Shown here: positions 9,100-56,616 of the stretch, piece after piece | Layout of the letters: the number at the start of each line of letters is the position of its first letter | Position numbering within the stretch: position 1 is the first letter of the stretch | IMG/VR virus record: IMGVR_UViG_3300037471_001733 | Span: 22,201-86,200 of that record | Length of the DNA stretch: 64,000 bases | Direction: 5' to 3' (one strand) | Origin: a virus | Lineage: Duplodnaviria > Heunggongvirae > Uroviricota > Caudoviricetes | Notes under the pieces: generated by a model | What the model was told of the DNA's origin: nothing | The model's database searches: none | What the model saw: the letters and a program-made list of their open reading frames with translations, nothing else | Position numbers and translations under genes: made by a program

Positions 9100-10182
9100 C
9101 TACTTGCTGATGAGGCTCAGGATGTGGGCCTTCAGGTTCGCCAGCTCGGTTGCGCTTTGCTCGTCACGAGCAGGCGCGGCCGGAGCCGCAGGTGCGGCAG
9201 CGGCGGGTTCCCGAGACTCGTCGCGAGGCCCGGTGTGCAGCGCGGCCTTGGCCAGTGCGATGACGCACTTGGCCTCGGCCGCAGAAAGGCCAACCGCATC
9301 ACGCAGTTGGCGCTCAAGGATGCGGACCTCAGGCGTGCCGTCGTCGTCGCCGGCAGGCACGAGGTCTTGCGGGGTGTTCTTGAAGAAGGGCAGCATGGCC
9401 GAGCGCGCATGCGTCAGCGCGGCCTTCTTCTCCTTCTTCTTGGCCGGCACCATCGTGTCGGCGAATCCTTTGTCCACGGCGTCCTGGCCGCGGAACCACG
9501 TTTCGGCGTCAACCCACGAGGCGATTTCGGCGCGGTCGCCACCGGTGCGCGCGACGTAGATGTCGATGAGGCCGGCTTCCAGCGTGTCCAGCACGTCGGC
9601 TTCCTTGCGCAGGGCCTTGGCGTTGCCGGCGAGAATCGTCCACGGCGCGTGGATCATGAAGTTCGCGCCTTCAGCGATGCGGATCTCGTCGCCGGCCATC
9701 GCAATTACGGAAGCGATGCTGGCGGCAATGCCATCGACGTGCACGATGATCTTGGCCTTGTGCGTGGCCAGCGCGTTGTAGATGCTGACGCCGTCGAACA
9801 CGGACCCGCCTGGCGAGTTGATGTGTACGTGCAGCTCATCAGCATCCAGCGCGGCGAGTTCGCGCACTGTGTCCTCGGCATTAACGCCGCCGTCCCAGTA
9901 GCCGCCGATGTCGCCGTATACAAACAGCTTCGGCGCTTCGCCTTCGTCGGCGGCCAAGCGCAGGTGGCCAGGGCCCAGCGCGCGCGGCGCCAGATTCATT
10001 GCCCGCTCGGGCAGGCCGGCGAGATTGATGACGGGTTTGGTCATTGCGGCCGTCCCTTCCTCATTGCTTTCTTGTTCCTCGCCCAACTCGGAGAGGACTG
10101 CGGCCAGCGACACCTGAGCGTCGCGGATGCGAGATTCGTTGCGGGCGCTCAGCACGCGCCCGGCGTTCAGACGTTGGCCCAT
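9100..10182 (-). CDS. prohead maturation protease, ClpP/S14-like, with C-terminal scaffold-like extension
   Basis: VYGDIGGYWDGGVNAEDT...HINSPGGSVFDGVSIYNAL...VDGIAASIASVIAMAGD ClpP-fold signature; between portal and MCP. Confidence 0.85.
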   Translation of the reverse strand: MGQRLNAGRVLSARNESRIRDAQVSLAAVLSELGEEQESNEEGTAAMTKPVINLAGLPERAMNLAPRALGPGHLRLAADEGEAPKLFVYGDIGGYWDGGVNAEDTVRELAALDADELHVHINSPGGSVFDGVSIYNALATHKAKIIVHVDGIAASIASVIAMAGDEIRIAEGANFMIHAPWTILAGNAKALRKEADVLDTLEAGLIDIYVARTGGDRAEIASWVDAETWFRGQDAVDKGFADTMVPAKKKEKKAALTHARSAMLPFFKNTPQDLVPAGDDDGTPEVRILERQLRDAVGLSAAEAKCVIALAKAALHTGPRDESREPAAAAPAAPAAPARDEQSATELANLKAHILSLISK

Positions 10183-18667: not shown

Positions 18668-18764
18668 CCCCCTCTGATGGAAACACAGGCAACCCCCTGG
18701 AGTGGAAACACAGGCCAGGCGCACCCTCTCCACGGGAATTACGGAACCCCCTGAGATGGAAACA
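18668..18764 (+). repeat. four tandem iteron-like units CCCCCT-N4-TGGAAACA(CAGG)
   Basis: Copies at 18668-18685, 18693-18710, 18747-18764 plus degenerate 18723-18739 (CCCTCT-N4-GGGAATTA); 24-30 bp spacing; array ends 20 bp upstream of promoter copy B. Confidence 0.65.
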
Positions 18765-20453: not shown

Positions 20454-22262
20454 ATGTCAGCACAAGACTTGATTGTTAGGATCAACGCAGCCGCCCAGGT
20501 GGCCCCGGAGCAACTGCCCAAAGGGGCGCAGCCGCGCGACCACATGATTGCCTTTGAGTACACCGACGCCCACGGCACGCGCGGCTGCATGCGCATCCTG
20601 AACACCCGGGCGCGGCTGCTGGCCTTCGCTGAGCAGGTGCGGAAGAACGCGGCAGCATTCGACGGCAAGCCGCGCAGCAAGCCCGCCGGGCCGCGCAAGA
20701 TTGCCGGCGCATCCCCGCTTTCCACGGCGCGCGCACTGCTCAAGGATGGCGCGCGGGTTGAAGCCCTCGCAGCGCTTGAGGCGCGCGGCGGGGAGGTGTT
20801 TTTCGGCGCCGCTGGCGTGCCTGTGCTGCATCAGGTTGCACAGCGCGTGGAGCACGAGGGCCGCCGCTGGGTTGTCACGCGCTGCGCCGTTGATGGTCTC
20901 ATCTACCTCATTCACGAGGCGTCCGGGCTGTCAGCAGGCGGCAAGGGCTTGCCTGAGATGCGCAGCATTGCGGATGCCCTGGCGCGGCTTGAGCTCGTGC
21001 ACCGGGACGAGGCGGAAAACGGCTACCGGCAGCGAATGATTGCTGCGATCGAGCAAGCGGCGGATTACGACCAGCAGGCGGCGCGCGCGGCTTTCGAGGC
21101 GTGCGATGGTCTCAAGAGCAAGGATGCCGCGCCGGTGGCTCAGGAAGCGTACCAGCAGGCGCGCGCGCTGTCGGCGGCGCAGGTGGCGCCCGATGTCGAG
21201 CCGGCAGTAGATGCAGACCCCTCCCCGGTGGAAAGCGAAGCCGAGGCGGCACCCCCTGTAGCGGAAACGCCTGCGGCAGCTGACACCCCTGCAGCGGAAA
21301 TCGAGTCCAGCGCGCCGGCGGTTGCGCCAGCATCCCCTCCGGCGGATTCACAGGCAGGCGCTGCACCCCCTGCGATGGAAAGCGCGCAGCCTGCGCCGCT
21401 TGCCACCGCGCCAGGCCGATCGGATGCGCTCATCGCGCGGGCCATCGCTTGGGTTGCCGTAGTCTGGGGAACCGCCAGCGTGCCGAGCGTTGCGGACTAC
21501 CGCGCCGGCCGGTGCGATGACACATTCCCGTGGGCGGGCGGCAGCCGCGCCGCCGGCTATCTGACATGGGCCGACCTCATTGGCGAGTGCATGGCCGCGC
21601 TGGAGCGCGACGACAGCGCCGACCAGGCGGCACGAGACGCCGCACTGCAACCACCGACCCCCATCCGTAGGAAAGGCCCGCGACAACATGAGCAGCACAC
21701 CCCATCCCGTGCAACCCGCAGTGCCAACCGGCCGCGAGTGGTGGACCCGCGGGCTGCTCGACTGGCACGCCGAGGCGCTGCACGCCGCCCAGGAGATCGC
21801 CGCGCTGCGCGAATCACTGGCTGCGGAGCGCGCAATGGTCCGCGAGCTGCAGGAGGCGCTCGCTGCCCGCCGGCAGGCCGCTTGACCCCTTCCCGGGGAA
21901 TCACGGCGCCACAAGCTTGCCGCCCCTGGCGCGACGCCAGCGAAACCCGAGACTGCACCCATAAAAACCTGGAGCACAGCATGACCTACACCGAAGCCAT
22001 CCAAGCCCTGCGCGACGCTATTGCGCAGGCCCCGAAGGGTGAAAAGCTGCAAGCCTTCCAAGCCAAGCGGGAGAAGATAATAGGGGCAATGCCCAAGGTG
22101 GAAATCTGTGGCGGCGAGCAGTGCATCCGCTATCCCAAGGGCTACCGCTTTGACTGCGGTCGCGAGGTCCACACGGACTGGATGTGGCAACCGTTTGCCA
22201 GCGAGGAAATCGCCATGCGGCCTGGCAACCTGCCGTACATCCTGCGCATGCCGGCTGCCTGA
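20454..22262 (+). CDS. long open frame; N-terminal ~400 codons look like a real two-domain protein with Pro/Ala/Glu repeat linker; 3' end probably composite
   Basis: AGGAG RBS before ATG 20454. No in-frame stop for 1.8 kb; frame turns Arg-rich (junk-like) from about 21660 to 21980, then is in frame with the 93-aa ORF. Confidence 0.4.
   Translation: MSAQDLIVRINAAAQVAPEQLPKGAQPRDHMIAFEYTDAHGTRGCMRILNTRARLLAFAEQVRKNAAAFDGKPRSKPAGPRKIAGASPLSTARALLKDGARVEALAALEARGGEVFFGAAGVPVLHQVAQRVEHEGRRWVVTRCAVDGLIYLIHEASGLSAGGKGLPEMRSIADALARLELVHRDEAENGYRQRMIAAIEQAADYDQQAARAAFEACDGLKSKDAAPVAQEAYQQARALSAAQVAPDVEPAVDADPSPVESEAEAAPPVAETPAAADTPAAEIESSAPAVAPASPPADSQAGAAPPAMESAQPAPLATAPGRSDALIARAIAWVAVVWGTASVPSVADYRAGRCDDTFPWAGGSRAAGYLTWADLIGECMAALERDDSADQAARDAALQPPTPIRRKGPRQHEQHTPSRATRSANRPRVVDPRAARLARRGAARRPGDRRAARITGCGARNGPRAAGGARCPPAGRLTPSRGITAPQACRPWRDASETRDCTHKNLEHSMTYTEAIQALRDAIAQAPKGEKLQAFQAKREKIIGAMPKVEICGGEQCIRYPKGYRFDCGREVHTDWMWQPFASEEIAMRPGNLPYILRMPAA
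21218..21382 (+). repeat. five copies of CCCC(C)T-N4-6-(T/C)GGA(A/T)(A/T) motif inside the linker-coding region
   Basis: Copies starting 21218, 21252, 21286, 21334 (degenerate), 21366; 32-48 bp spacing; encode PSPVESE/PPVAET/TPAAEIE/SPPADSQ/PPAMESA. Confidence 0.55.
21688..21885 (+). CDS. hypothetical coiled-coil protein (65 aa), nested in another frame of the long ORF
   Basis: AGGAAAGG RBS; protein-like sequence (REWWTRGLLDWHAEALHAAQEIAALRESLAAERAMVRELQEAL); stop in TGACCCCTTCC motif. Confidence 0.5.
   Translation: MSSTPHPVQPAVPTGREWWTRGLLDWHAEALHAAQEIAALRESLAAERAMVRELQEALAARRQAA
21981..22262 (+). CDS. hypothetical protein (93 aa)
   Basis: RBS ctGGAGcacagcATG; protein-like composition. 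Confidence 0.5.
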   Translation: MTYTEAIQALRDAIAQAPKGEKLQAFQAKREKIIGAMPKVEICGGEQCIRYPKGYRFDCGREVHTDWMWQPFASEEIAMRPGNLPYILRMPAA

Positions 22263-22404
22263 CGCATTGTCCGGTGGCGCAGCCTTTGGCGTTCAGCGCT
22301 ATTTGAACAAGGTGCGCGGTTTAGTTCAGGCGTACTTGAATAGCGCCCCCCCATGTAGTGAAAACAGGGCATCAACCCCATCCAGCGGATACAGGAGTCA
22401 AACC

Positions 22405-22695
22405 ATGGGAAGTATCAACCTCGGCCGCCACCACGTCGCCATCAGCGATCAATGGACGATCTACACCCCTGGCCTACCTGGCTGGCAGATGCTGGGCGTG
22501 ATCACCCGCAGCAAGGGTGGCGAGCAGATCACGAAGGCGCTGGCCCGCAGCCCGAAGGGCGAGCTCTGCGCGGTGCGTGGGCTGTCAGCCGAGCCGCTTG
22601 TCCAGCGAAAGGCTGAAGCGGCGCTGGCGGCTGCGATGCGCGAGGCCCATCCGGTGGAAACAGATGGCACCCATTCCGAGGGAAACAGGGCTTGA
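22405..22695 (+). CDS. hypothetical protein (96 aa)
   Basis: RBS acAGGAGtcaaaccATG. Confidence 0.5.
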   Translation: MGSINLGRHHVAISDQWTIYTPGLPGWQMLGVITRSKGGEQITKALARSPKGELCAVRGLSAEPLVQRKAEAALAAAMREAHPVETDGTHSEGNRA

Positions 22696-22725: not shown

Positions 22726-22956
22726 ATGAGCACCTTACCGCCGCGCACGCCAGAGAACATCAAAGCCTTCCGCCAGCGTGCCGGCTGGACGCAGGAGAAG
22801 GCATGCGAGATGGCGTGCATCCACGACCGCCAAACCTGGCGTAAGTACGAAAACGGCACGCTCAAGATGAGCGAAGAGCGCTGGCGGCTGGCGCACTTTA
22901 TGGCCAACCTGCACCCCGACTTCGACGTTCGGCCGCGTACCAAGGCTGCGGCCTAG
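22726..22956 (+). CDS. XRE-family helix-turn-helix regulator (76 aa)
   Basis: IKAFRQRAGWTQEKACEMACIHDRQTWRKYENG...RWRLAHFMANLHPDF typical XRE/MqsA-like HTH pattern. Confidence 0.65.
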   Translation: MSTLPPRTPENIKAFRQRAGWTQEKACEMACIHDRQTWRKYENGTLKMSEERWRLAHFMANLHPDFDVRPRTKAAA

Positions 22957-22989
22957 CCTTCGCCCTCTGAGTACCGCCGGGAGGCGGCG

Positions 22990-23334
22990 TCAACCGTTTG
23001 GGTTCTGTGCCAGCCAAGCCCGGATCATCGCCTTGACCGCGGCGTGCAGGCCGTGTGGCGCGTAGACGCCACGCACTTCCTCGATACCTCTTTCCTTGAG
23101 CAGGGCCCTTCTTGCTCGATTCCTCTCTGTCGAGCTCTTCCCCGAAGGGGCTTTCGCGGTGGCGTTCATGAGCAGTTCCGTGCCATCGATTTTCTTCTCA
23201 GGCAAGGAGCAGGGGGCCAGTTCGCACTCTGCGGGAGCATTTGAGGGGGGCGGTTTGTTCTCGACCATTTGGCATTGACCCGTCGCGCGCGACGGTCCAT
23301 CATTCTTCGCTTTTCGACGATCAGAAGCCGCCAT
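22990..23334 (-). CDS. small basic DNA-binding-type regulator (start uncertain; 55-114 aa)
   Basis: C-terminus STERNRARRALLKERGIEEVRGVYAPHGLHAAVKAMIRAWL resembles small plasmid/phage basic-region regulators; alternative ATG at 23169. Confidence 0.45.
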   Translation of the reverse strand: MAASDRRKAKNDGPSRATGQCQMVENKPPPSNAPAECELAPCSLPEKKIDGTELLMNATAKAPSGKSSTERNRARRALLKERGIEEVRGVYAPHGLHAAVKAMIRAWLAQNPNG

Positions 23335-23568
23335 AAGTTGTGATGCGGCCGGAGTGCGCTAGTTGCAAGAACTATCAATTGGCATTCTCAAGGCGCAAGC
23401 GTGTCTTGCCAAGACTTTGTTGCACAGAGAGCGGCATGGATGCCGCTTTTGCGTTTGTGCAATCACCTCGAAAGGTTCCTGCCAGAGGATGCCGCCGATT
23501 GCCCACTATGGGGCAGGAACCAGTTCCACAATCGAAGCGCCACGCACTACGAAGAGTGGAGTTGCGCC

Positions 23569-24279
23569 ATGGACTGCGGCAAGAGAAGAACATGGGAGTG
23601 TGGCGTGACAACGAACTCTAAGAGGCTTTCTGGTAGACCATCTTTTAATTGGTCTATACCTGAGCCAGAAGAAGTTAAAGAAGTTAGATTGAAAGCCAAT
23701 TTGTCTCAGAGAGAAGCTTGTAATCTTTCTGGGATTAAAGAAGTAATGACTTGGAGTAATTGCGAAACTAGGAGAGCCGATGGCACTCCTAAGGCCCGCA
23801 TGGACCCAATTAGATGGGAATATTTCCTTCTAATAGTTGGACAACATTCCAAATTCGTTATTCTTCCGAGACTCGGGGTTGAACAGCCAAGAGAGGCGGC
23901 AGCTTTAACTAGGAAAGGTCCGTCTCTGCCTGGGGAGAACATTACTTTCGCAGTCGAGAGCCGAACTAGTGAAGACGAGTGGCGCTTGGTAGAAGGCGGA
24001 CAGTTCACAGCTCTGACTGCGGCATGTGTGGCCATAGACACGATGGTTGCCTGCAGGAACCTAAATGAACTAAGGGTGTCGCGTTACTCAGGTGGCGACT
24101 TCGTGATGGCAGTGCATGGGCCTGGTGTCTCTATGGACGAAGGCCCGAAGCGTTTTACCCATGCAAAGGCTGCGCCATCTCGAAGGACTGGGACTGACAG
24201 GAACGGAGCAGACCCAGGAGACCCAGATAATGATGGAAATGGAAGCAGAAATTCCAATGGTTTCGACCCTCAGGATTGA
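23569..24279 (+). CDS. low-GC HTH-fusion protein (236 aa): N-terminal XRE-type HTH, C-terminal ~130-aa unknown domain, acidic/Gly/Asn tail
   Basis: VKEVRLKANLSQREACNLSGIKEVMTWSNCE...PIRWEYFLLIVGQH HTH pattern; AT-rich codons (AGA, TTA, AAA) unlike rest of window. Confidence 0.6.
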   Translation: MDCGKRRTWECGVTTNSKRLSGRPSFNWSIPEPEEVKEVRLKANLSQREACNLSGIKEVMTWSNCETRRADGTPKARMDPIRWEYFLLIVGQHSKFVILPRLGVEQPREAAALTRKGPSLPGENITFAVESRTSEDEWRLVEGGQFTALTAACVAIDTMVACRNLNELRVSRYSGGDFVMAVHGPGVSMDEGPKRFTHAKAAPSRRTGTDRNGADPGDPDNDGNGSRNSNGFDPQD

Positions 24280-24306
24280 CATTCCCCGAAATAGGGAAGC
24301 CCAGGA

Positions 24307-25227
24307 TCAGCCACCTTGGGCATGCAGGAACCTTCGCATTTCTCGCTCCACCTCGCCGAGCATCTCGCTCATGCGGTCAAGCATGTGGCCCGCAAAGCGG
24401 CGCTGGACATCGGTCTCGCCAAGCGACTCACGAACCAGGCCGGTGCCTCGGCAGAAGCGGCACTTCATCTGCAGCGCAGAGCCGTAGGCACCCTGGGTAT
24501 CCTTCCCTCCTTTCTTGCCGACGCGCGGCTGCGATTGAAGTACCGATCCGACGCCGCAGCACGGACCACAACGGGGATTGAGCCAACTGCGCAGCACGCG
24601 GCCTGTGATCGCCGCCACAGCCTTGTCGGACAGGCTGCTTTGCTGGGCTGCCTTGGTGACCCGTCGATGCCATTCTTGATGCCGAGCTCGCAACTGCTCG
24701 TCGGTCTCGCCCTGCCGCCGTCTCGGTTCGGCCGGCAGCCGGAGTCCCTGCAGCGGGAACTTTGAGGCTTCGATGGTTGCCCAGCGGAACAGCGCGTCGC
24801 GCGCCGACTCCAGCGTCCTCAGCTTCGACAACATCAGCGCTTGCTCGGAGATCGCCTCGCGCTTAGCTTGGTCGCGCAGCGCTTCAAGGTCGGCGATCTT
24901 CTGCTCAAGCACCTCCTTGTCCTGCGCCGCCTGGCTCAGCATCAGCCGCGAAACCTCCTTCGCTGCCGACTTGATCGCCTCCTCCAGTTGGATCTGACGC
25001 CTCAAGGCCAGCGCGTGATCGCCTTTCACGCCGTCCCACTCGACGTGCAGTCTGAGCAGCAGTGGCGCAAGCGCACGCTCGGCATTGCCGCGATACCGGC
25101 TCTCGACGCAGCCGGCGGCGATGAGCAAGTCGACGTCCGTGATGCGTAGTCTGTTGACTTTCAAGCGCTTGGCAGTGATGGCCTGGCCGTACCGCTCTTC
25201 AATGGTGATAGGGGCGTCGGAAGTCAC
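24307..25227 (-). CDS. coiled-coil protein with two DnaJ-type CxxCxGxG zinc knuckles; possible Q-like antiterminator
   Basis: RCGPCCGVGS...KCRFCRGTG resembles lambda Q CRDCHGTG...CGRCKGVG (memory); last gene of the early operon. Confidence 0.35.
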   Translation of the reverse strand: MTSDAPITIEERYGQAITAKRLKVNRLRITDVDLLIAAGCVESRYRGNAERALAPLLLRLHVEWDGVKGDHALALRRQIQLEEAIKSAAKEVSRLMLSQAAQDKEVLEQKIADLEALRDQAKREAISEQALMLSKLRTLESARDALFRWATIEASKFPLQGLRLPAEPRRRQGETDEQLRARHQEWHRRVTKAAQQSSLSDKAVAAITGRVLRSWLNPRCGPCCGVGSVLQSQPRVGKKGGKDTQGAYGSALQMKCRFCRGTGLVRESLGETDVQRRFAGHMLDRMSEMLGEVEREMRRFLHAQGG

Positions 25228-44286: not shown

Positions 44287-44652
44287 TTACACCGGCTCCG
44301 TTGCATCTGCGGGCACAGCAGATGCGCCTTGGCCATCAGTCCAAATCTCTTTCCCGTCGTCAGGATGCAAATGGAATCGCGTGACCTTGCCGCCGGTATT
44401 CCGCTCAATCAGTACAGACAATTTCGGGTTGCTGGGACTCAGCCCGTACATGACGTTGCGGAGGCGACCGAGGGAGACACCACAGCTGGCAGCGAACTCT
44501 TTCCTAGCTTTCGCGTTGGGCAAAGCTTTGACGAAGTCGTACAGCGGGGTGATGTACAGACTGCGGTCGCGTCCATTGACCTTCGTAGCGGTGTAGGTTC
44601 CGGTGCACATAACACCGAATCCTACACTGATGAATGCATACCTAGCAAACAC
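44287..44652 (-). CDS. Cro/YdaS-like HTH regulator (start uncertain: ATG 44652 or 44610)
   Basis: ARKEFAASCGVSLGRLRNVMYG...LSVLIERNTGGKVTRFHLHPDD matches YdaS/Cro-type pattern; first gene of the leftward early operon. Confidence 0.7.
   Translation of the reverse strand: MFARYAFISVGFGVMCTGTYTATKVNGRDRSLYITPLYDFVKALPNAKARKEFAASCGVSLGRLRNVMYGLSPSNPKLSVLIERNTGGKVTRFHLHPDDGKEIWTDGQGASAVPADATEPV
44593..44626. promoter_or_regulatory. 34-bp imperfect palindrome in the cro-like/cI-like divergent region (operator candidate)
   Basis: TGTAGGTTCCGGTG-cacataa-CACCGAATCCTACA; outer TGTAGG/CCTACA, inner CGGTG/CACCG; -10-like TACACT at 44623-28 (plus) and TAGGAT (minus). Confidence 0.55.
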
Positions 44653-44685: not shown

Positions 44686-45180
44686 GTGAGTGACGACCGC
44701 TTAATCCGTATCAGCAATCTGCGCAGGGTGTGCGCCGAGCGCAGGCTCAAGACCGCCGATCTACACCGGCTCCTGCCCTATGCCCGCTACACCTACTGGC
44801 GTGACGTACTGGAGGGCGACAAGCCCTTTGGAGAGAAGGCAGCGCGCAAGGTAGAAGCCAAGCTCGGCCTGCCCGACCGGTGGCTGGACACGCCGCGGGA
44901 CCCTGTTGAGTTCCGCGAGGTGTTACCCAGCGTGCCCGACGACGACGAAGACGAGCACCCAGATGAAGGGGGCCATGAATCGCACTGGCGCCACATCGCG
45001 GAGCTGTTTGCCGATATCTGCACGGAGCAGGACATCAAGATGCTGCCGTCCACCTTCTTGCTGATCGTTGATGCCGGCGTCCAGCGCGTGAATGAAGCGG
45101 CCGACAAGCGCAAGGCTTCCGAGGTTTTCAGCAAGCTTCTTCGCGTACTACAGCACGGCAAAGACCAAAATAGGGGCTAA
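44686..45180 (+). CDS. CI-type repressor-like HTH protein without recognisable S24 peptidase domain (164 aa)
   Basis: GTG 44686. RISNLRRVCAERRLKTADLHRLL HTH and FGEKAARKVEAKLGLPDRWLD signature of phage CI/C2 N-domains; divergent from cro-like gene. Confidence 0.6.
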   Translation: MSDDRLIRISNLRRVCAERRLKTADLHRLLPYARYTYWRDVLEGDKPFGEKAARKVEAKLGLPDRWLDTPRDPVEFREVLPSVPDDDEDEHPDEGGHESHWRHIAELFADICTEQDIKMLPSTFLLIVDAGVQRVNEAADKRKASEVFSKLLRVLQHGKDQNRG

Positions 45181-50366: not shown

Positions 50367-50432
50367 CCATCTAACTGATCCATGCCCGGCGCGGGCTGCG
50401 CGCCAATTCCACAGAAGACGGAGACGGAAACC

Positions 50433-51374
50433 ATGACTACTGCACTCGCTCTCATGAGCAACCGCCTGGCGCAACGCTTCGGCATGGTCGAAGACGCCGA
50501 GTTGATTCCTGTGCTCAAGGCAACTGCGTTCAAAGGTCAGGTCAGTGACGCGCAGATGACGGCGCTGCTGATCGTTGCCGATCAATACGGCCTGAATCCG
50601 TGGACCAAGGAAATCTACGCTTTCCCAGACCCGCAGAACGGCATCGTGCCGGTGGTCAGCGTTGACGGCTGGAGCCGCATCATCAATGAGCACCCCGCCT
50701 TCGACGGCATTGAGTTCGAGTTGTCCGGCAAGGGCGATGACATGGAGATGCTGTGCCGCATCTTCCGCAAGGACCGCAGCCGCCCGATCGCAGTGACGGA
50801 GTACTTGACCGAGTGCAAGCGTGAAACGAAGCCTTGGAAGTCTCACCCGCGACGCATGCTGCGTCACAAGGCTGAGATCCAATGCGCCCGATTGGCCTTC
50901 GGCTTCGCTGGGCTCCACGACCACGACGAGGCGGAGCGCATTGTGGAAGCATCGTCTGGCGCACCGAAGAACATGGGGGCAGCCCAGGTGGTCGAGGCCG
51001 CCGCAGCTGCGGAAATGCCGCTCGGCCTGCTGGAGTCAGCCGAGAGCGCTGCGACCGAAGGGGTGGCCATCTATCAGGAATTCTGGAAGTCAACCGGCCC
51101 GGAAAACCGCAAGGCGCTGGCTGGCCACCATGCGCGGCTGAAGCAAGCAGCCATTGACGCCGACGCGGCGCGCACGGTGGAGATGCCCACGACCGGCGGC
51201 CAAGCCGAGCAGCCCACGCTGGACCTGGTGGCGCTGGAGCGGCGCATCGGCAGCTGCAACGACGCTCAGGTGTTGCTGCTCATTGCCGACGACGTGGCCA
51301 CGCTGCCCGAGGGTGAGGATCGCGCGCGGCTGGAGAAGTTGATCGCGGTGCGCGGCGAAGCGCTGGAGGGCTGA
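50433..51374 (+). CDS. bet: single-strand annealing protein, lambda Bet (Red-beta) homolog
   Basis: Long near-identical blocks to lambda Bet from memory: LLIVADQYGLNPWTKEIYAFPD.QNGIVPVV.VDGWSRIINE, HP.RMLRHKA.IQCARLAFGFAG..D.DEAERI. Confidence 0.9.
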   Translation: MTTALALMSNRLAQRFGMVEDAELIPVLKATAFKGQVSDAQMTALLIVADQYGLNPWTKEIYAFPDPQNGIVPVVSVDGWSRIINEHPAFDGIEFELSGKGDDMEMLCRIFRKDRSRPIAVTEYLTECKRETKPWKSHPRRMLRHKAEIQCARLAFGFAGLHDHDEAERIVEASSGAPKNMGAAQVVEAAAAAEMPLGLLESAESAATEGVAIYQEFWKSTGPENRKALAGHHARLKQAAIDADAARTVEMPTTGGQAEQPTLDLVALERRIGSCNDAQVLLLIADDVATLPEGEDRARLEKLIAVRGEALEG

Positions 51375-52484: not shown

Positions 52485-53357
52485 GTGCGGCGGCGTGTGC
52501 TGCCAGCCGCTCTTTCTTTTGATGGCAACTGCGAAAACCCCGGGGCTACGAGCGCGGCCAGCAGAGCCGCGCCGCCAGCCCCACCAACCAACTACAGCGA
52601 GATTCACGTGATCCACTACCACGGACTGCCGATTACGCCGGACACGGCAGCAGAGCGTGCTATTGCTGGCGGCCATGCGTTTGTGTCATTCGCGCACCCT
52701 GAGCAATTGGGTCTCGCTGCGGCTGTGGCGCAATCATTCGCCATTGATAACGGCGCGTTCTCGGCTTGGCGGGCCGGCCGTCCGGTAACGGACTGGACGC
52801 CTTTCTACGAATGGGCTGCCGCAGCCAAGCGCATCCCTGGCTGCGACTTCGCCGTCATACCTGATGTCATTGACGGCACTGAGGCTGACAACGATGCGTT
52901 GCTTGCCGAGTGGCCGCTGCCCAACTGGTTCGGGGCGCCCGTGTGGCACATGAACGAGGGCCTGGATCGCCTGGAGCGCTTGGCCACCGTCTTCCCTCGC
53001 GTGTGCATCGGCAGTTCTGGCGAGTTCGCAATGGTGGGAACGCCGACGTGGTGGGGCCAGATCGCCCGCGCCATGCGTGTTGTGTGCGACGACGATGGGC
53101 GCCCGATGTGCAGGCTCCATGGCCTGCGCATGCTGGACCCGGAAGTGTTCAAGCATCTCCCGTTTTCCAGCGCAGACAGCACGAATATCGGCCGCAACAT
53201 TGGCATCGATCAAGCTTGGCGCGGCACCTATACGCCGCCGACGAAAGAGGCGCGGGCAGCTGTCATGCGCTCGCGCATTGAGGCTGAGAACGCGCCAGCA
53301 CGCTGGGCGTTTCGCATCCCCGAGTTCCATCCTGAAGACCAAGGGAGCCTGCTGTGA
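52485..53357 (+). CDS. dpdA: DpdA-like DNA-guanine transglycosylase candidate (TGT superfamily); start uncertain (GTG 52485 or GTG 52608)
   Basis: IDNGAFSAW resembles the TGT DSGGFQ loop; ATGA-type coupling into queC; assignment rests mainly on context with queC/E/D. Confidence 0.55.
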   Translation: MRRRVLPAALSFDGNCENPGATSAASRAAPPAPPTNYSEIHVIHYHGLPITPDTAAERAIAGGHAFVSFAHPEQLGLAAAVAQSFAIDNGAFSAWRAGRPVTDWTPFYEWAAAAKRIPGCDFAVIPDVIDGTEADNDALLAEWPLPNWFGAPVWHMNEGLDRLERLATVFPRVCIGSSGEFAMVGTPTWWGQIARAMRVVCDDDGRPMCRLHGLRMLDPEVFKHLPFSSADSTNIGRNIGIDQAWRGTYTPPTKEARAAVMRSRIEAENAPARWAFRIPEFHPEDQGSLL

Positions 53358-53890
53358 GCAAAGTTATCCTGTTGTCCGGCGGCCTGGATTCCGCCCTGTG
53401 CTTGGCTCGCTACGGCGCCGACTTGGCCATTGGCTTCAATTACGGACAGCCGCATGCGATTGAGTTGGCCCATGCCGAGCGCATTGCAAGGCAGCACGGC
53501 GTGCCTTTCGAGATCCATGCGCTGCCGACCATGCCGCGCGTCAACGACGTCGTCTTCGCCGGCCGCAATGCGGTGATGCTGACGGCAGCCGCAGCCATTG
53601 CTCAGGCGCGCGGCCACGACGCGGTGTTGATCGGCTGCAACTTCTCGGATGCCACCCGGTTTCCTGACTGCCGGCCGGAATTCATTCGCAACATCAGCAA
53701 GGCGCTTGAGTCGGCATATGGCGTAAGCGTCTGCGCGCCGCTGCTGTTGTCCACCAAGACGCAGATAGTGGCAGAGGCCAAGCAACGCGGCATCACGGAC
53801 ACCTGGACCTGTTACGCGCCCACAACTGATGGTCAGCAGTGCGGCCAGTGCTACTCCTGCCAGGGCATCGCCTCAGCGAGCGCGTCATGA
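53354..53890 (+). CDS. queC: 7-cyano-7-deazaguanine (preQ0) synthase QueC, compact form (178 aa)
   Basis: MSKVILLSGGLDSALC PP-loop, FAGRNAVMLTAAA, C-terminal C..(10)..CGQCYSC zinc motif. Confidence 0.8.
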   Translation: MSKVILLSGGLDSALCLARYGADLAIGFNYGQPHAIELAHAERIARQHGVPFEIHALPTMPRVNDVVFAGRNAVMLTAAAAIAQARGHDAVLIGCNFSDATRFPDCRPEFIRNISKALESAYGVSVCAPLLLSTKTQIVAEAKQRGITDTWTCYAPTTDGQQCGQCYSCQGIASASAS

Positions 53891-54507
53891 CCTATACCGT
53901 CAAGGAGATCTTCTACACGCTGCAGGGCGAGGGCTTGCACGCCGGGCGCCCAGCGGTGTTCTGCCGCTTCGCCGGGTGCAACCTGTGGAGCGGGCGTGAG
54001 CAGGACAGGAGCAAGGCGGCATGCCGTTTCTGCGACACCGAGTTCCGCGGCGGCACGAAGTACCGCACGCCCGAGGATTTGGCTGATGCCATTGAGCAGG
54101 CGTGGGCGCCGCAGGTGGTGGCCCGACGCATGGTGGTGCTCACCGGCGGCGAGCCGGCGCTGCAGGTGGATCAGGCGCTTGTGCACTTGCTGCAGGCCCG
54201 CGGGTTCTATGTCGCCATCGAGACGAACGGCACCAAGGAACTGCCGCAGGGTCTGGATTGGGTGTGCGTGAGCCCCAAGGGCGATGAGCCGCTGCGTGTG
54301 GTGCATGGCAACGAGCTGAAGCTGGTGTACCCGCAGATGCTGGCACTGCCGCAGCGGTTTGAGGAGTTGGCCTTCGACCACTTCCTTCTGCAGCCCATGG
54401 ACGGCCCGTTCCTTGAGGCCAACACCCAGGCTGCCATCGAGTTCTGCATGGGCAACCCAAAGTGGCGGCTCTCGGTGCAGACCCACAAGTACATCGGAGT
54501 GCGCTGA
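53887..54507 (+). CDS. queE: 7-carboxy-7-deazaguanine synthase QueE (radical SAM)
   Basis: ATGA overlap; EIFYTLQGEGLHAGRPAVFCRFAGCNLWSG...CRFCDT, VLTGGEP, IETNGT, LLQPMDG...W.LS.QTHK. Confidence 0.85.
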   Translation: MTYTVKEIFYTLQGEGLHAGRPAVFCRFAGCNLWSGREQDRSKAACRFCDTEFRGGTKYRTPEDLADAIEQAWAPQVVARRMVVLTGGEPALQVDQALVHLLQARGFYVAIETNGTKELPQGLDWVCVSPKGDEPLRVVHGNELKLVYPQMLALPQRFEELAFDHFLLQPMDGPFLEANTQAAIEFCMGNPKWRLSVQTHKYIGVR

Positions 54508-54973: not shown

Positions 54974-56038
54974 ATGTTCAAAAACTTGACCTTGTTGCGC
55001 ATCAGCAGCGACTGGCTGCCCGATGCCATCGCTGCCGAGGACCAGCTGGCGCGCGAGCCCTTCACCGCCTGCGGTGCGACACAACCCGCGAGTGCTGGCT
55101 GGGTGCCGCCGCGAGGTGTGCCGCATGCGCCGCTGCTGGAGGTCATCGGCGGCCATTGGATTCTGTCGTTGATGTCAGAGCGCCGGCTGCTGCCCGGATC
55201 TGTCATCAAGGACCGCGTTGCCGAGATGACTGCCGAGTTCGAGAAGGCCAACGGCTACAAGGTCGGCAAGCGCCAGCGCAAGGAACTGGTGGCGCAGGCC
55301 GAGCAGGAGTTGCTGCCGAAGGCATTCACGAAACGCTCGCTGACCAAGGTGTGGCTCGACCCCCGCGCCCGCCTCCTAGCGGTCGACACCGGCAGCGCCA
55401 GCGCGGCCGAGTCTGTGGTTTCGATGCTGGTCAAGAGCCTGGACGGCTTTGGTGTGCAGCCTGTGACGACTTGGCTGGCGCCGGCCGGCGCGATGGCGGC
55501 TTGGATCAGCGAAGGCTGCGCGCCAAGCGGCTTCAGCCTGGACCGCGAGTGCGAGCTCAAGTCCACGGACGAGATGAAGAGCGTCGTCCGCTACGCCCGC
55601 CACTCGCTGGACAACGATGACGTGCGCCGCCACATCGCATCCGGCAAGCGCCCGACGCGCCTGGCGCTGTCCTGGGGCGACCGCGTGGCGTTCACCTTGA
55701 CCGATGGGCTTGTGCTCAAGCGCATCGAGTTTCTTGACGTCGCCATGGAAGGCCGCTCCGAAGTGGACGCGGCAGAGGCCTTTGACGCTGATGCTGCTAT
55801 CGCCTGCGGCGAGCTCAGCCGCCTGATACCGGATCTGCTGGCGGCGCTTGGTAACGAGGCTGAGCAGTCGCGCATCCACGAGGAAGAATCCAGCCCCAAG
55901 GCTGCGCTACAGGACCCCGCAGTGCCGAATTTGGACCACATCAGTACATCAGCGCTCTACTTGGCAGCGCAGGTGGAGCAGCAGATGGCTCCGATACGCG
56001 CGGCCCTGTCCGAGACTGCAGGAGCCGCCAAGGCATGA
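54974..56038 (+). CDS. rdgC: recombination-associated protein RdgC homolog (354 aa)
   Basis: MFKNLTLLRISSDWLP...AREPFTACGATQPASAGWVPP...ERRLLPGSVIKD typical RdgC N-terminus. Confidence 0.75.
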   Translation: MFKNLTLLRISSDWLPDAIAAEDQLAREPFTACGATQPASAGWVPPRGVPHAPLLEVIGGHWILSLMSERRLLPGSVIKDRVAEMTAEFEKANGYKVGKRQRKELVAQAEQELLPKAFTKRSLTKVWLDPRARLLAVDTGSASAAESVVSMLVKSLDGFGVQPVTTWLAPAGAMAAWISEGCAPSGFSLDRECELKSTDEMKSVVRYARHSLDNDDVRRHIASGKRPTRLALSWGDRVAFTLTDGLVLKRIEFLDVAMEGRSEVDAAEAFDADAAIACGELSRLIPDLLAALGNEAEQSRIHEEESSPKAALQDPAVPNLDHISTSALYLAAQVEQQMAPIRAALSETAGAAKA

Positions 56039-56616
56039 GCCTGCACATCGTCCCGATCACGCTTGAGCAGGCCAAGAGGTTCGTGCGCCGGCACCACCGC
56101 CACAACAAGCCGCCCACGGGCTGGAAGTTCGGCGTGGGCCTGTGCCACAGCGCCGGGCCGCTAGTGGGAGTGGCGACCGCTGGGCGCCCGGTGTCGCGCG
56201 AGATCCAGGAGCGCGAGCCGCTGACGCTGGAGGTCAACCGCACGTGCACGGACGGCACGCGCAACGCCAACTCGATGCTCTACGGCGCGATCTGGCGCGC
56301 GGCCAAGGCCCTGGGCTACACGCGCGCCATCACCTACATCCAAGGCAACGAGACGGGCGCCTCGCTCAAGGCTGCGGGCTGGGTGAAGGTGCGCGACCTA
56401 GATGCGCGCGGCTCCTGGAAGGAGTCGAGCAAGAAGTTGGCGCACCTGCGCGACGACGAGGGCACGGGCGGCGTGGCGCGGCAGCTGTGGGAAATCCGCG
56501 CTGCGACCGCCGGCCCAGTGGTGCTGCCCGACCTGGGCGCCGACGACGATCTGACAGACGACACAGAAGACCCCACGGGCGACTTGTTCGCCGAAGCTGA
56601 AGGAGAGCCCGCATGA
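56035..56616 (+). CDS. XF1762-family / GNAT-fold-like protein (193 aa) with acidic tail
   Basis: ATGA overlap; ITLEQAKRFVRRHHRHNKPP.GWKFGVG...LVGVATAGRPVSR...LEVNRTC...NANSMLYGA..RAAKALGY...TY....E.GASLKAAGW. Confidence 0.55.
   Translation: MSLHIVPITLEQAKRFVRRHHRHNKPPTGWKFGVGLCHSAGPLVGVATAGRPVSREIQEREPLTLEVNRTCTDGTRNANSMLYGAIWRAAKALGYTRAITYIQGNETGASLKAAGWVKVRDLDARGSWKESSKKLAHLRDDEGTGGVARQLWEIRAATAGPVVLPDLGADDDLTDDTEDPTGDLFAEAEGEPA

Follow-up and report, generated by a model that had tools for sequence, protein, structure and literature searches.

The closest solved relative of the helix-turn-helix domain described here is Aca10, which binds as a dimer to a palindrome between the -35 and -10 elements of its own operon; its residue R44 is critical and G49 is located at the dimer interface (PMC9410881). 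Moreover, aca operons with motifs in the 5' untranslated region, as well as an Aca protein of the ribbon-helix-helix type, have been described (PMC13551039). In the present study, 64,000 nucleotides of the IMG/VR virus record IMGVR_UViG_3300037471_001733 (positions 22,201 to 86,200; referred to as the window) were analyzed with respect to a plus-strand gene at 23569-24279, in which an Aca10-like helix-turn-helix (HTH) domain is fused to an additional C-terminal domain. The comparison of this fusion gene with its relatives suggests that it specifies a new and very rare two-domain variant of the Aca/XRE-type autoregulators, encoded within a conserved cassette together with a small basic protein and a stand-alone HTH protein.

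Results

Detection and conservation of the fusion gene

The fusion gene is an open reading frame (ORF) of 236 aa on the plus strand (23569..24279), and the identical protein was called by the JGI (P0001). A second possible in-frame start, GTG at 23605, would yield a product of 224 aa; it is preceded by GGGAG 6 nt upstream and aligns with the start of relatives, in which a Shine-Dalgarno (SD) sequence is followed by GTG-ACN. Searches of 5.8 billion clustered proteins and 1.84 billion representatives yielded about 12 full-length relatives in total. Among 50,697 phage records, no match was obtained to the region of 20-28 kb (megablast) or to the fusion protein (tblastn), and the best match of the large terminase of the window phage, in a Ralstonia phage, is only 66% identical. 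The compared loci are designated by L numbers. An independent run contained an identical copy of the region (L001), with 0 mismatches over 13 kb, and the nearest relative, L003, shares 79% amino acid identity across residues 30-185. The proportion of nonsynonymous differences from L003 is low (pN 0.14) compared with the saturated synonymous differences (pS 0.74), which argues for strong purifying selection. These data indicate that the region 23569-24279 encodes a genuine gene under purifying selection.

The L003 allele shows two peculiarities. An in-frame TAA codon at about 370-380 separates the conserved N-terminal arm (SKRLAGKAP) from the HTH, and the tail contains an insertion of about 70 aa that resembles an extra HTH (…LEQGVSLDEAAKQSGVSKTGLSRA…). 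The remainder of this ORF is under strong purifying selection despite the TAA codon, which may be explained by read-through, re-initiation, an assembly error or a young pseudogene.

Domain architecture of the fusion protein

The structure of the fusion protein was modelled by AlphaFold with a 12-sequence alignment, and the C-domain was also modelled alone. The basic N-terminal arm SKRLSGRP (family motif PKRxAGR; 23617..23640, plus strand) is located just N-terminal to the HTH and is conserved in frame, with synonymous third-position changes among the loci (GGT/GGG/GGC; AAG/AAA). The subsequent Aca10-like, XRE-type HTH domain comprises residues 30-95 (23656..23853, plus strand), with the recognition helix around EVMTWSNCE, and was modelled as a helical domain with a predicted local distance difference test (pLDDT) score above 90. 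It forms the four- to five-helix bundle with helix-turn-helix that characterizes the XRE or lambda-repressor-like fold. Both sequence and structure are significantly similar to Aca10, and further matches were obtained to Aca1, Aca2, Aca3, Aca7 and AcrIF24. The identity of the domain is based on profile and fold evidence and not on Pfam alone, as neither HTH_3 nor HTH_31 matches the fusion protein above the gathering threshold (HTH_31, E 0.57, 11 bits vs a cut-off of 27); just 3 of the 12 family members reach E<=5 (best 7e-4). The stand-alone relatives, in contrast, do match, with 25 of 36 hitting HTH_31.

The HTH is followed by a conserved basic linker of about 25 aa (residues 96-120; 23854..23928, plus strand; FVxxPRxGVxxPK...RRRGxSxP), which is predicted to be disordered (pLDDT <50) and contains the near-invariant residues P100, R101, P107 and R115. 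Residues 121-185 (23929..24123, plus strand) constitute a compact ββαββ C-domain of about 65 aa with pLDDT values of 84-93, and the same fold was obtained when this domain was modelled alone. The protein ends with a Gly/Asn/Asp-rich tail of about 50 aa (residues 186-236; 24124..24276, plus strand) that appears disordered (pLDDT 45-58) and is homologous to the tail of L003 only; the C-terminus of most relatives is a basic ...PSCARxxWRR sequence. The original prediction of an HTH joined to an unrecognised domain and a tail was thus correct in its overall outline, and the proposed domain of about 130 aa resolves into the linker and the C-domain, with the tail following.

The C-domain has no match in PDB sequences (profile search), Pfam or NCBIfam, and a fold search of BFVD returned nothing at E<1e-3. 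Acr-like fold matches were at noise level, and generic folds (RuBisCO small-subunit-like, PsaD) scored higher. A match to an ordinary phage regulatory protein, which the original prediction had named, in combination with a lack of phenotype on expression, as evidence against itself, was likewise not obtained, and an hhalign comparison of the C-domain with the neighbouring small ORFs yielded nothing. W138, G143, A152, A155, R169, R172 and Y173 are invariant in the 12-sequence alignment; since these residues do not look catalytic, a role in binding or oligomerisation is favoured over an enzymatic one. Neither a transmembrane segment nor a toxin fold was found in the C-domain. With the complete fusion protein, Pfam, PHROGs, PADLOC and NCBIfam gave the weak HTH match only, and in PADLOC-DB neither the fusion protein nor the small basic protein, the stand-alone HTH protein or four neighbours had a match at E<=0.1.

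With respect to the proposed MqsA-like character of the HTH, the NCBIfam profile TIGR03830 matched marginally (E 0.049), and no RelE-, ParE- or MqsR-like fold was detected for the C-domain. A type II toxin-antitoxin pair was rejected, as the partner gene is divergent and not co-directional and a recognisable toxin fold is lacking. Likewise, a CI-type repressor was dismissed in view of the missing peptidase S24/LexA autocleavage domain and the missing known CI oligomerisation domain.

Genes associated with the fusion gene

The divergently oriented gene upstream of the fusion gene (22990..23268, minus strand) encodes a small basic protein of 92 aa, the conserved core of which comprises the last 59 aa or so. 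Homologues are located directly upstream of the fusion gene and divergent from it in L002 (partial), L005/L051, L045, L046/L047, L049 and L050. A total of 13 relatives of this protein was found, and it has no match in Pfam, PDB, PHROGs, PADLOC or NCBIfam. A 114-aa version of the small ORF, extending to 23334, was discarded, its extra N-terminal codons being a reverse translation of the conserved promoter. The third member of the triad is a plus-strand gene (22726..22956) encoding an XRE/Aca-like HTH protein of 76 aa (HTH_31, E 1e-6) that is a paralogue of the N-domain of the fusion protein (BLASTP, 4e-9); its equivalents in L005, L046, L049 and L050 are located slightly further upstream. The two flanking regulators that had been proposed initially are both present, with the extent of the opposite-strand gene corrected from 22990-23334 to 22990-23268.

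More remote homologues of this small protein, with E values from 2e-5 to 6e-7, were observed on the phage-like contigs L053 (6001-6701) and L054 (6001-6518 and 8761-8928), one contig carrying two copies. They head co-directional gene pairs followed by unrelated genes of 117-172 aa, and the small protein may be a regulator that serves varied cargo genes. Moreover, a hairpin without a T-run is conserved in the window (CCGCC-ggga-GGCGG, 22957-22989) and in L005 (GCCCGCC-ggga-GGCGGGC, about 9485-9510), where it is located between the convergent stops of the small basic gene and of the 76-aa HTH gene (window) or the preceding plus-strand gene (L005). It is possibly a bidirectional terminator.

Promoter and operator-like motifs upstream of the fusion gene

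A sigma-70-type promoter directed towards the fusion gene was identified at 23275..23303 (TTGACC-17 nt-CATCAT; plus strand; promoter scan 9/12), about 265 nt upstream of the ATG at 23569. A long leader precedes the fusion gene in every case, and just past the promoter the divergent small gene begins in nearly all loci. The 30-nt block TTGACC-YGTYGCGCGCRAC-N4-CATGAT is almost invariant in all eight loci that have the small gene, and the hexamers along with their 17-nt spacing are fixed across these diverged loci. The promoter spacer contains a perfect, operator-like 16-bp palindrome, CCGTCGCGCGCGACGG (23280..23295), designated inverted repeat 1 (IR1). Its arms vary symmetrically among the loci, from C..G to T..A at two positions. 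An exact copy of IR1 is present once in the window and is also unique in L005; the 12-bp core occurs a single time in the 64 kb, and degenerate matches do not exceed the level of chance. The leader contains a further operator-like inverted repeat at 23360..23374, TAGTTGCAAGAACTA (IR2; TAGTT-N5-AACTA), which was found in 8/9 loci at +70 to +96 from TTGACC, the chance per locus being 4-11%.

The sequences of both repeats vary in parallel with those of the encoded proteins. Every locus with TAGTT-N5-AACTA encodes a recognition helix ending in WSNCE. L049, with the helix end WSNYE, carries another palindrome, CTGTCTATATATACAG, at the IR2 offset, and L048 (WSKWE), which lacks both IR1 and the small gene, contains AATTGGGCGAA-N5-TTCGCCCCAATT in place of IR2. 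Three variants of IR1 parallel three classes of the basic N-terminal helix of the small protein, represented by STERNRARR, TVRSRRLR and TRRSRKLR. From this co-variation, which comprises a small number of cases that all point the same way, we infer that the small protein acts on IR1 and the fusion protein on IR2. A search of genome and metagenome collections with the operator pattern resulted in 38 further matches (L007-L044), which were set aside as chance occurrences; they stem from unrelated taxa, none encodes the protein, and their number is approximately that expected for 18 specified bases.

The leader additionally contains a terminator- or attenuator-like hairpin, AGCGGCA-tgga-TGCCGCT followed by the T-run TTTGCGTTT (23430..23456, plus strand), with a folding energy of -26.5 kcal/mol (z -2.7). 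Rfam searches of the locus (evalue mode) and of the complete window (gathering mode) returned nothing, and neither did tRNA scans.

A predicted frameshift site in relatives

In L002, L004, L005, L048 and L049, a strong SD sequence and a start codon occupy the +1 frame with respect to the main ORF, and putative dnaX-like -1 frameshift cassettes were recognized at 404-484, 269-349, 9968-10048, 1593-1673 and 900-980, respectively. The heptamer C_CCA_AAA is positioned 2-5 codons past the start and is phased for -1 slippage into CCC-AAA-A.., which encodes PKx of the N-terminal arm. In these five relatives, an SD-like element precedes the heptamer by 9-16 nt, and a spacer of 4-7 nt and a GC-rich 9-bp stem follow it; 97.8% of the stem positions are paired, and two pairs are altered on both sides at synonymous codon positions. 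The main frame of L002 and L005 is closed upstream and has no canonical start, so that their full-length proteins seem to need the -1 shift. In the equivalent region of the window (23590-23680), as in L046 and L050, the SD-proximal GTG (23605 in the window) is in frame and TCTAAGA replaces the heptamer. Taken together with the operators, the length of the leader and the rare codons described below, these findings suggest that all members of the family need the full-length protein to be expressed at a low level and under a gate.

Nucleotide composition and its age

The AT-richness and the codon bias that had been noticed by eye in the original prediction were confirmed by computation. The GC content of the ORF is 0.492 and that of the segment 23610-24290 is 0.489, compared with 0.639 for the window, and the ORF represents the GC minimum of all 711-bp segments (mean 0.639, sd 0.030, z -4.85), followed by a runner-up of 0.561. 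The deepest trough, with 0.38-0.45 per 60 bp, extends from 23600 to 23840, and the complete low-GC block of leader and gene (23300..24290), as delimited by the composition profiles and codon statistics of the window, is bounded on the left by the conserved promoter/operator region and on the right by the convergent gene, which has its stop at 24307. The GC content by codon position is 0.53/0.52/0.43, with the third-position value (GC3) of genes nearby at 0.73-0.84. Codon usage was compared with that of 32 confident window genes and is given per 1000 codons. AGA occurs at 42 vs 2.1 (approximately 20-fold), AGG at 30 vs 4.6, ATA at 13 vs 1.9, TCT at 38 vs 5, ACT and AAT each at 38 vs 4, AAA at 21 vs 5 and ATT at 17 vs 7. 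A score similar to the codon adaptation index (CAI) is 0.316 for the fusion gene and 0.651±0.055 for the reference genes (minimum 0.552). Both the GC and the codon statistics of the gene thus differ from the window average, and on GC z-score and CAI-like score the gene is compositionally foreign.

A recent acquisition from a lower-GC donor, which had been deduced from this composition, is not supported by the comparison of loci. The gene has the same position and partners in L003 and L005/L051, and its divergence (49% amino acid identity in L005/L051) is like that of its neighbours (40-56%). The GC3 value of the fusion gene is low with respect to its neighbours in the window (0.43 vs about 0.8), L003 (0.47 vs 0.69), L049 (0.52 vs 0.85-0.89) and L004 (0.55 vs 0.83), and amounts to 0.71-0.84 in L002, L005, L045, L046 and L048; the four low-GC alleles are mutually diverged and do not group as one clade. 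The flanking gene compared between the window and L003 has GC3 values of 0.69-0.73. As the synonymous sites of the window and L003 are saturated and both genes are still AT-rich, the AT-richness of this part of the family is evidently either old or under active maintenance. It could stem from an origin of lower GC content with later amelioration in one clade, or from selection that favours rare codons or AT-rich DNA.

Genomic context of the cassette

The window belongs in its entirety to a lambdoid temperate phage. Its minus strand carries O-like and DnaC-like replication genes at 41.6-40.8 kb, followed by many small genes down to 24307, and genes for an HNH protein, the small and large terminase, portal, protease and major head protein are located further left, at 15.4-7.8 kb. 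The fusion gene closes a plus-strand island (18.8-24.3 kb) between the early-right and late operons and converges on the gene 24307-25227. Its description as the tip of an accessory module is therefore accurate, since it is the last gene of the accessory island; as a terminal prophage gene it was misplaced, because it lies within the phage, with the end of the early-right operon on one side and the late operon (terminase/head) on the other. The genes of the island have almost no family matches in Pfam, PHROGs, PADLOC and NCBIfam.

In L005/L051, comprising a 73-kb IMG/VR viral contig and 119.6-kb JGI metagenome contigs of the same sample, the flanking phage genes are syntenic with those of the window, and the homologues of the proteins of 306, 198 and 131 aa display the above-mentioned identities of 40-56%. 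The nucleotide identity to L003 is 75% for the downstream gene and 73% for the fusion gene. The sole named organism carrying the cassette is Azohydromonas aeria (L050; GCA_009760915.1, contig VIDQ01000056.1, 38462-50668), in which the triad has DUF932 and ParB_N genes in its vicinity and is separated by about 4 kb from a tandem of two tyrosine-recombinase genes. This context suggests an integrative element rather than a lambdoid phage, as well as hosts of the Burkholderiales type. The synteny in phages and the presence of the triad in A. aeria indicate that the cassette is a long-standing and portable component of accessory islands.

Several additional features of the phage genome were observed. 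A divergent pair of Cro/YdaS-like and cI-like HTH genes at 44287-44652 (minus strand) and about 44695-45180 (plus strand), which is locally GC-poor, is the main lysis-lysogeny switch of the phage, and the cassette is for this reason a second regulatory unit. The plus-strand early-left operon comprises Bet/RecT (50382-51374) and exonuclease genes as well as genes for DpdA/queuine-tRNA-ribosyltransferase-like, QueE-like radical-SAM and Mom-like proteins (52485-53357, 53839-54507 and 56035-56616), which suggest a 7-deazaguanine and/or Mom-type DNA modification as an anti-restriction measure. The convergent gene 24307-25227 (minus strand), the last of the early-right operon, encodes a protein of 306 aa without family match, in which a DnaJ-like, zinc-finger-like C-terminus (CxxC...CxxCxGxG) was read by eye; it adjoins the cassette in L003 and L005/L051 too, and its product is a candidate late-gene regulator. 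Finally, the motif CCCTnnRnKGGAAACA is enriched in the window, with 15 matches at <=2 mismatches vs 2.9 expected (18670-18764, 22351-22366 and 22647-22687, plus strand). Three exact copies precede the first gene of the plus-strand island, others are located upstream of 22405 and 22726, and none is near the fusion gene. The motif is possibly the binding site or an RNA motif of another island regulator.

Discussion

A proposed local switch with an additional domain

The reading that we favour, to which we give about even credence on the strength of comparative sequence data, is that the fusion protein is not an enzyme but a sequence-specific DNA-binding regulator that forms a local, auto- or mutually repressing switch together with the small basic protein. 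As dimers, the two proteins would recognise the two operators. The small basic protein would most likely occupy IR1 and thereby block access to the promoter of the fusion gene, in the manner of Aca10 at its own operon, and the fusion protein would most likely bind IR2, obstructing the leader of its own gene and/or transcription of the small gene in the opposite direction. The resulting circuit would be comparable in its logic to those of the CI/Cro or Aca type, with the C-domain serving oligomerisation or the binding of a partner. Its output would be local, because no further operators are present in the phage. In the window copy, the amount of full-length protein would be kept low by the operators, by the leader of about 265 nt with its terminator-like hairpin and by very rare codons; in the five relatives, the -1 frameshift cassette near codon 5 would act as the throttle. 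The distribution of the cassette is best explained by its travelling with accessory islands of temperate phages and integrative elements of high-GC Proteobacteria.

Several observations weigh against this interpretation. The assignment of operators is derived from three operator classes and two deviant loci, and linkage or shared ancestry could mimic such a pattern; the symmetric changes in the arms of IR1 would preserve an RNA or DNA hairpin just as well. For the small gene, the comparison of promoters across the loci yielded no minus-strand promoter that was both convincing and conserved. The leader hairpin is kept in L003 alone, the terminator scan did not call it, and with no conservation beyond that locus an attenuator role is not claimed. 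The residues aligned to R44 and G49 of Aca10 are Ala/Lys and Ile/Val in the fusion family. In addition, the role assigned to the C-domain is a guess, and a regulator with itself as sole target leaves the purpose of the cassette in question.

Other interpretations of the cassette

In an alternative reading, the fusion protein would be a self-regulated anti-defence protein of the Acr-Aca fusion type, whose C-domain and/or tail binds and inhibits a host defence protein and whose HTH shuts the strong promoter after a first burst of expression, as in AcrIIA1, AcrIIA13-15 and AcrIF24. This would agree with Aca10 as the closest solved relative of the HTH and with the matches to the other Aca proteins and AcrIF24, with the presence of two features known from acr-aca operons (PMC9410881, PMC13551039), namely a palindrome within a strong promoter and a 5' leader that is long and structured, with the restriction of the operators to the cassette, with its place in a variable accessory island, in phages as well as in an integrative element, and with the DNA-modification anti-restriction genes of the same phage. 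However, generic folds score higher than the noise-level Acr-like matches of the C-domain, no known acr or anti-defence gene is adjacent, and the C-domain is kept with the HTH and the small partner in all members and not swapped as Acr cargo usually is; moreover, the label Aca is defined by an association with an Acr protein that is only hypothetical for the cassette. We consider an anti-defence function unlikely. A related view, which is likewise doubtful, regards the cassette, with the small basic protein, the promoter containing IR1, the leader containing IR2 and the fusion gene, as an undescribed portable module of bistable or self-limiting character in accessory islands of phages and integrative and conjugative elements, the ββαββ payload domain of which inhibits or senses a host factor (for example in anti-defence) and the synthesis of which is gated by the start-proximal -1 frameshift in several alleles and by extremely rare codons in others. 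The function put forward in the original prediction, a lysogenic-conversion, exclusion or abortive-infection gene with an infection-sensing HTH and a toxic C-terminal effector, has very little probability in our estimation. The foreign composition, the own promoter and the position in an accessory island could be reconciled with it, and the layered throttling by rare codons, leader and, in relatives, frameshift would suit a toxic product. On the other hand, PADLOC, Pfam, PHROGs and NCBIfam provide no match for any cassette protein apart from the weak HTH, the C-domain is only about 65 aa in size and shows neither conserved catalytic-type residues nor a transmembrane segment or toxin fold, and the gene is not at a prophage end and represents a syntenic component of a phage group rather than a sporadic moron.

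A role in phage development, with the cassette serving as an additional switch for immunity or late control, of the P2/186 or P22 immI kind, and with targets elsewhere, such as the plus-strand island or the late operon, is suggested by the layout of the locus. A two-domain HTH protein of 236 aa and a small divergent DNA-binding protein with operators in between resemble the well-established pairs CI/Cro, CI/Apl and Mnt/Arc, the location is exactly between the early and late operons, and the neighbouring last early gene, 24307-25227, encodes the protein with the zinc-finger-like C-terminus. Yet the single occurrence of IR1 and of its 12-bp core in the 64 kb, with other matches at chance, speaks against distant targets of such a switch, and the intergenic regions of the island hold a different repeated motif. 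Furthermore, the same cassette is present in the non-phage-like integrative context of A. aeria, and the phage already owns the cI/Cro-like switch at 44.3-45.2 kb, so that we consider this role rather improbable.

Implications

If the preferred reading of a local auto- or mutually repressing switch is true, the cassette represents a compact portable regulatory unit consisting of a pair of small DNA-binding proteins, a pair of operators and a single strong promoter, and a fused member is to be added to the Aca10-like regulators. It would also carry an unclassified domain in a type of island that tends to conceal functions in anti-defence and exclusion. The alleles offer a natural comparison of throttles on one gene, with rare codons and AT-richness in the window copy vs a start-proximal -1 frameshift in sister alleles. 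For compositional screens, the data call for caution, since a gene of strikingly low GC content in a high-GC phage may be an old syntenic resident and not a recent import.

Comparison with known regulatory systems

With Aca10 (PDB 7XI5; PMC9410881), the cassette shares a palindrome between the -35 and -10 elements upstream of the own gene and a long 5' leader. Aca10, however, is a stand-alone protein of 65 aa encoded at the end of an acr operon. The fusion gene, by contrast, is monocistronic, with a promoter and a leader to itself; the cassette yielded no acr homologue, although Acr proteins of an undescribed type may be present, and the neighbouring small ORFs are unrelated to the C-domain. 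With respect to Aca10, the HTH of the fusion protein is extended by the basic N-terminal arm, a 6-residue insertion, the linker, the extra domain and the tail, and the Aca10 operator ATACGCTCAtTGAGCGTAT is unrelated to IR1. The arrangement of an autoregulatory HTH fused to a second small domain, with operators in the own promoter and a location in accessory regions of mobile genetic elements, is also found in AcrIIA1, AcrIIA13-15 and AcrIF24, but outside the HTH these proteins have neither sequence nor significant fold similarity to the fusion protein.

Lambda CI/Cro, 186 CI/Apl and TP901-1 CI/MOR resemble the cassette in the combination of an N-terminal HTH and a C-terminal non-DNA-binding domain in a protein of about 200-240 aa, with a small divergent DNA-binding partner and intergenic operators. 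They differ in that the C-domain of the fusion protein is neither a peptidase-S24 domain nor a known CI oligomerisation fold, that the phage has a separate cI/Cro-like switch, and that the cassette contains one operator set without sites elsewhere. In the relatives with a predicted frameshift, the SD-like element, the slippery heptamer, the spacer and the stem are arranged as in -1 signals of the dnaX and IS3 type. The predicted shift site is situated only 2-5 codons from the start, however, and would consequently gate the synthesis of the whole protein and not the ratio of two long products.

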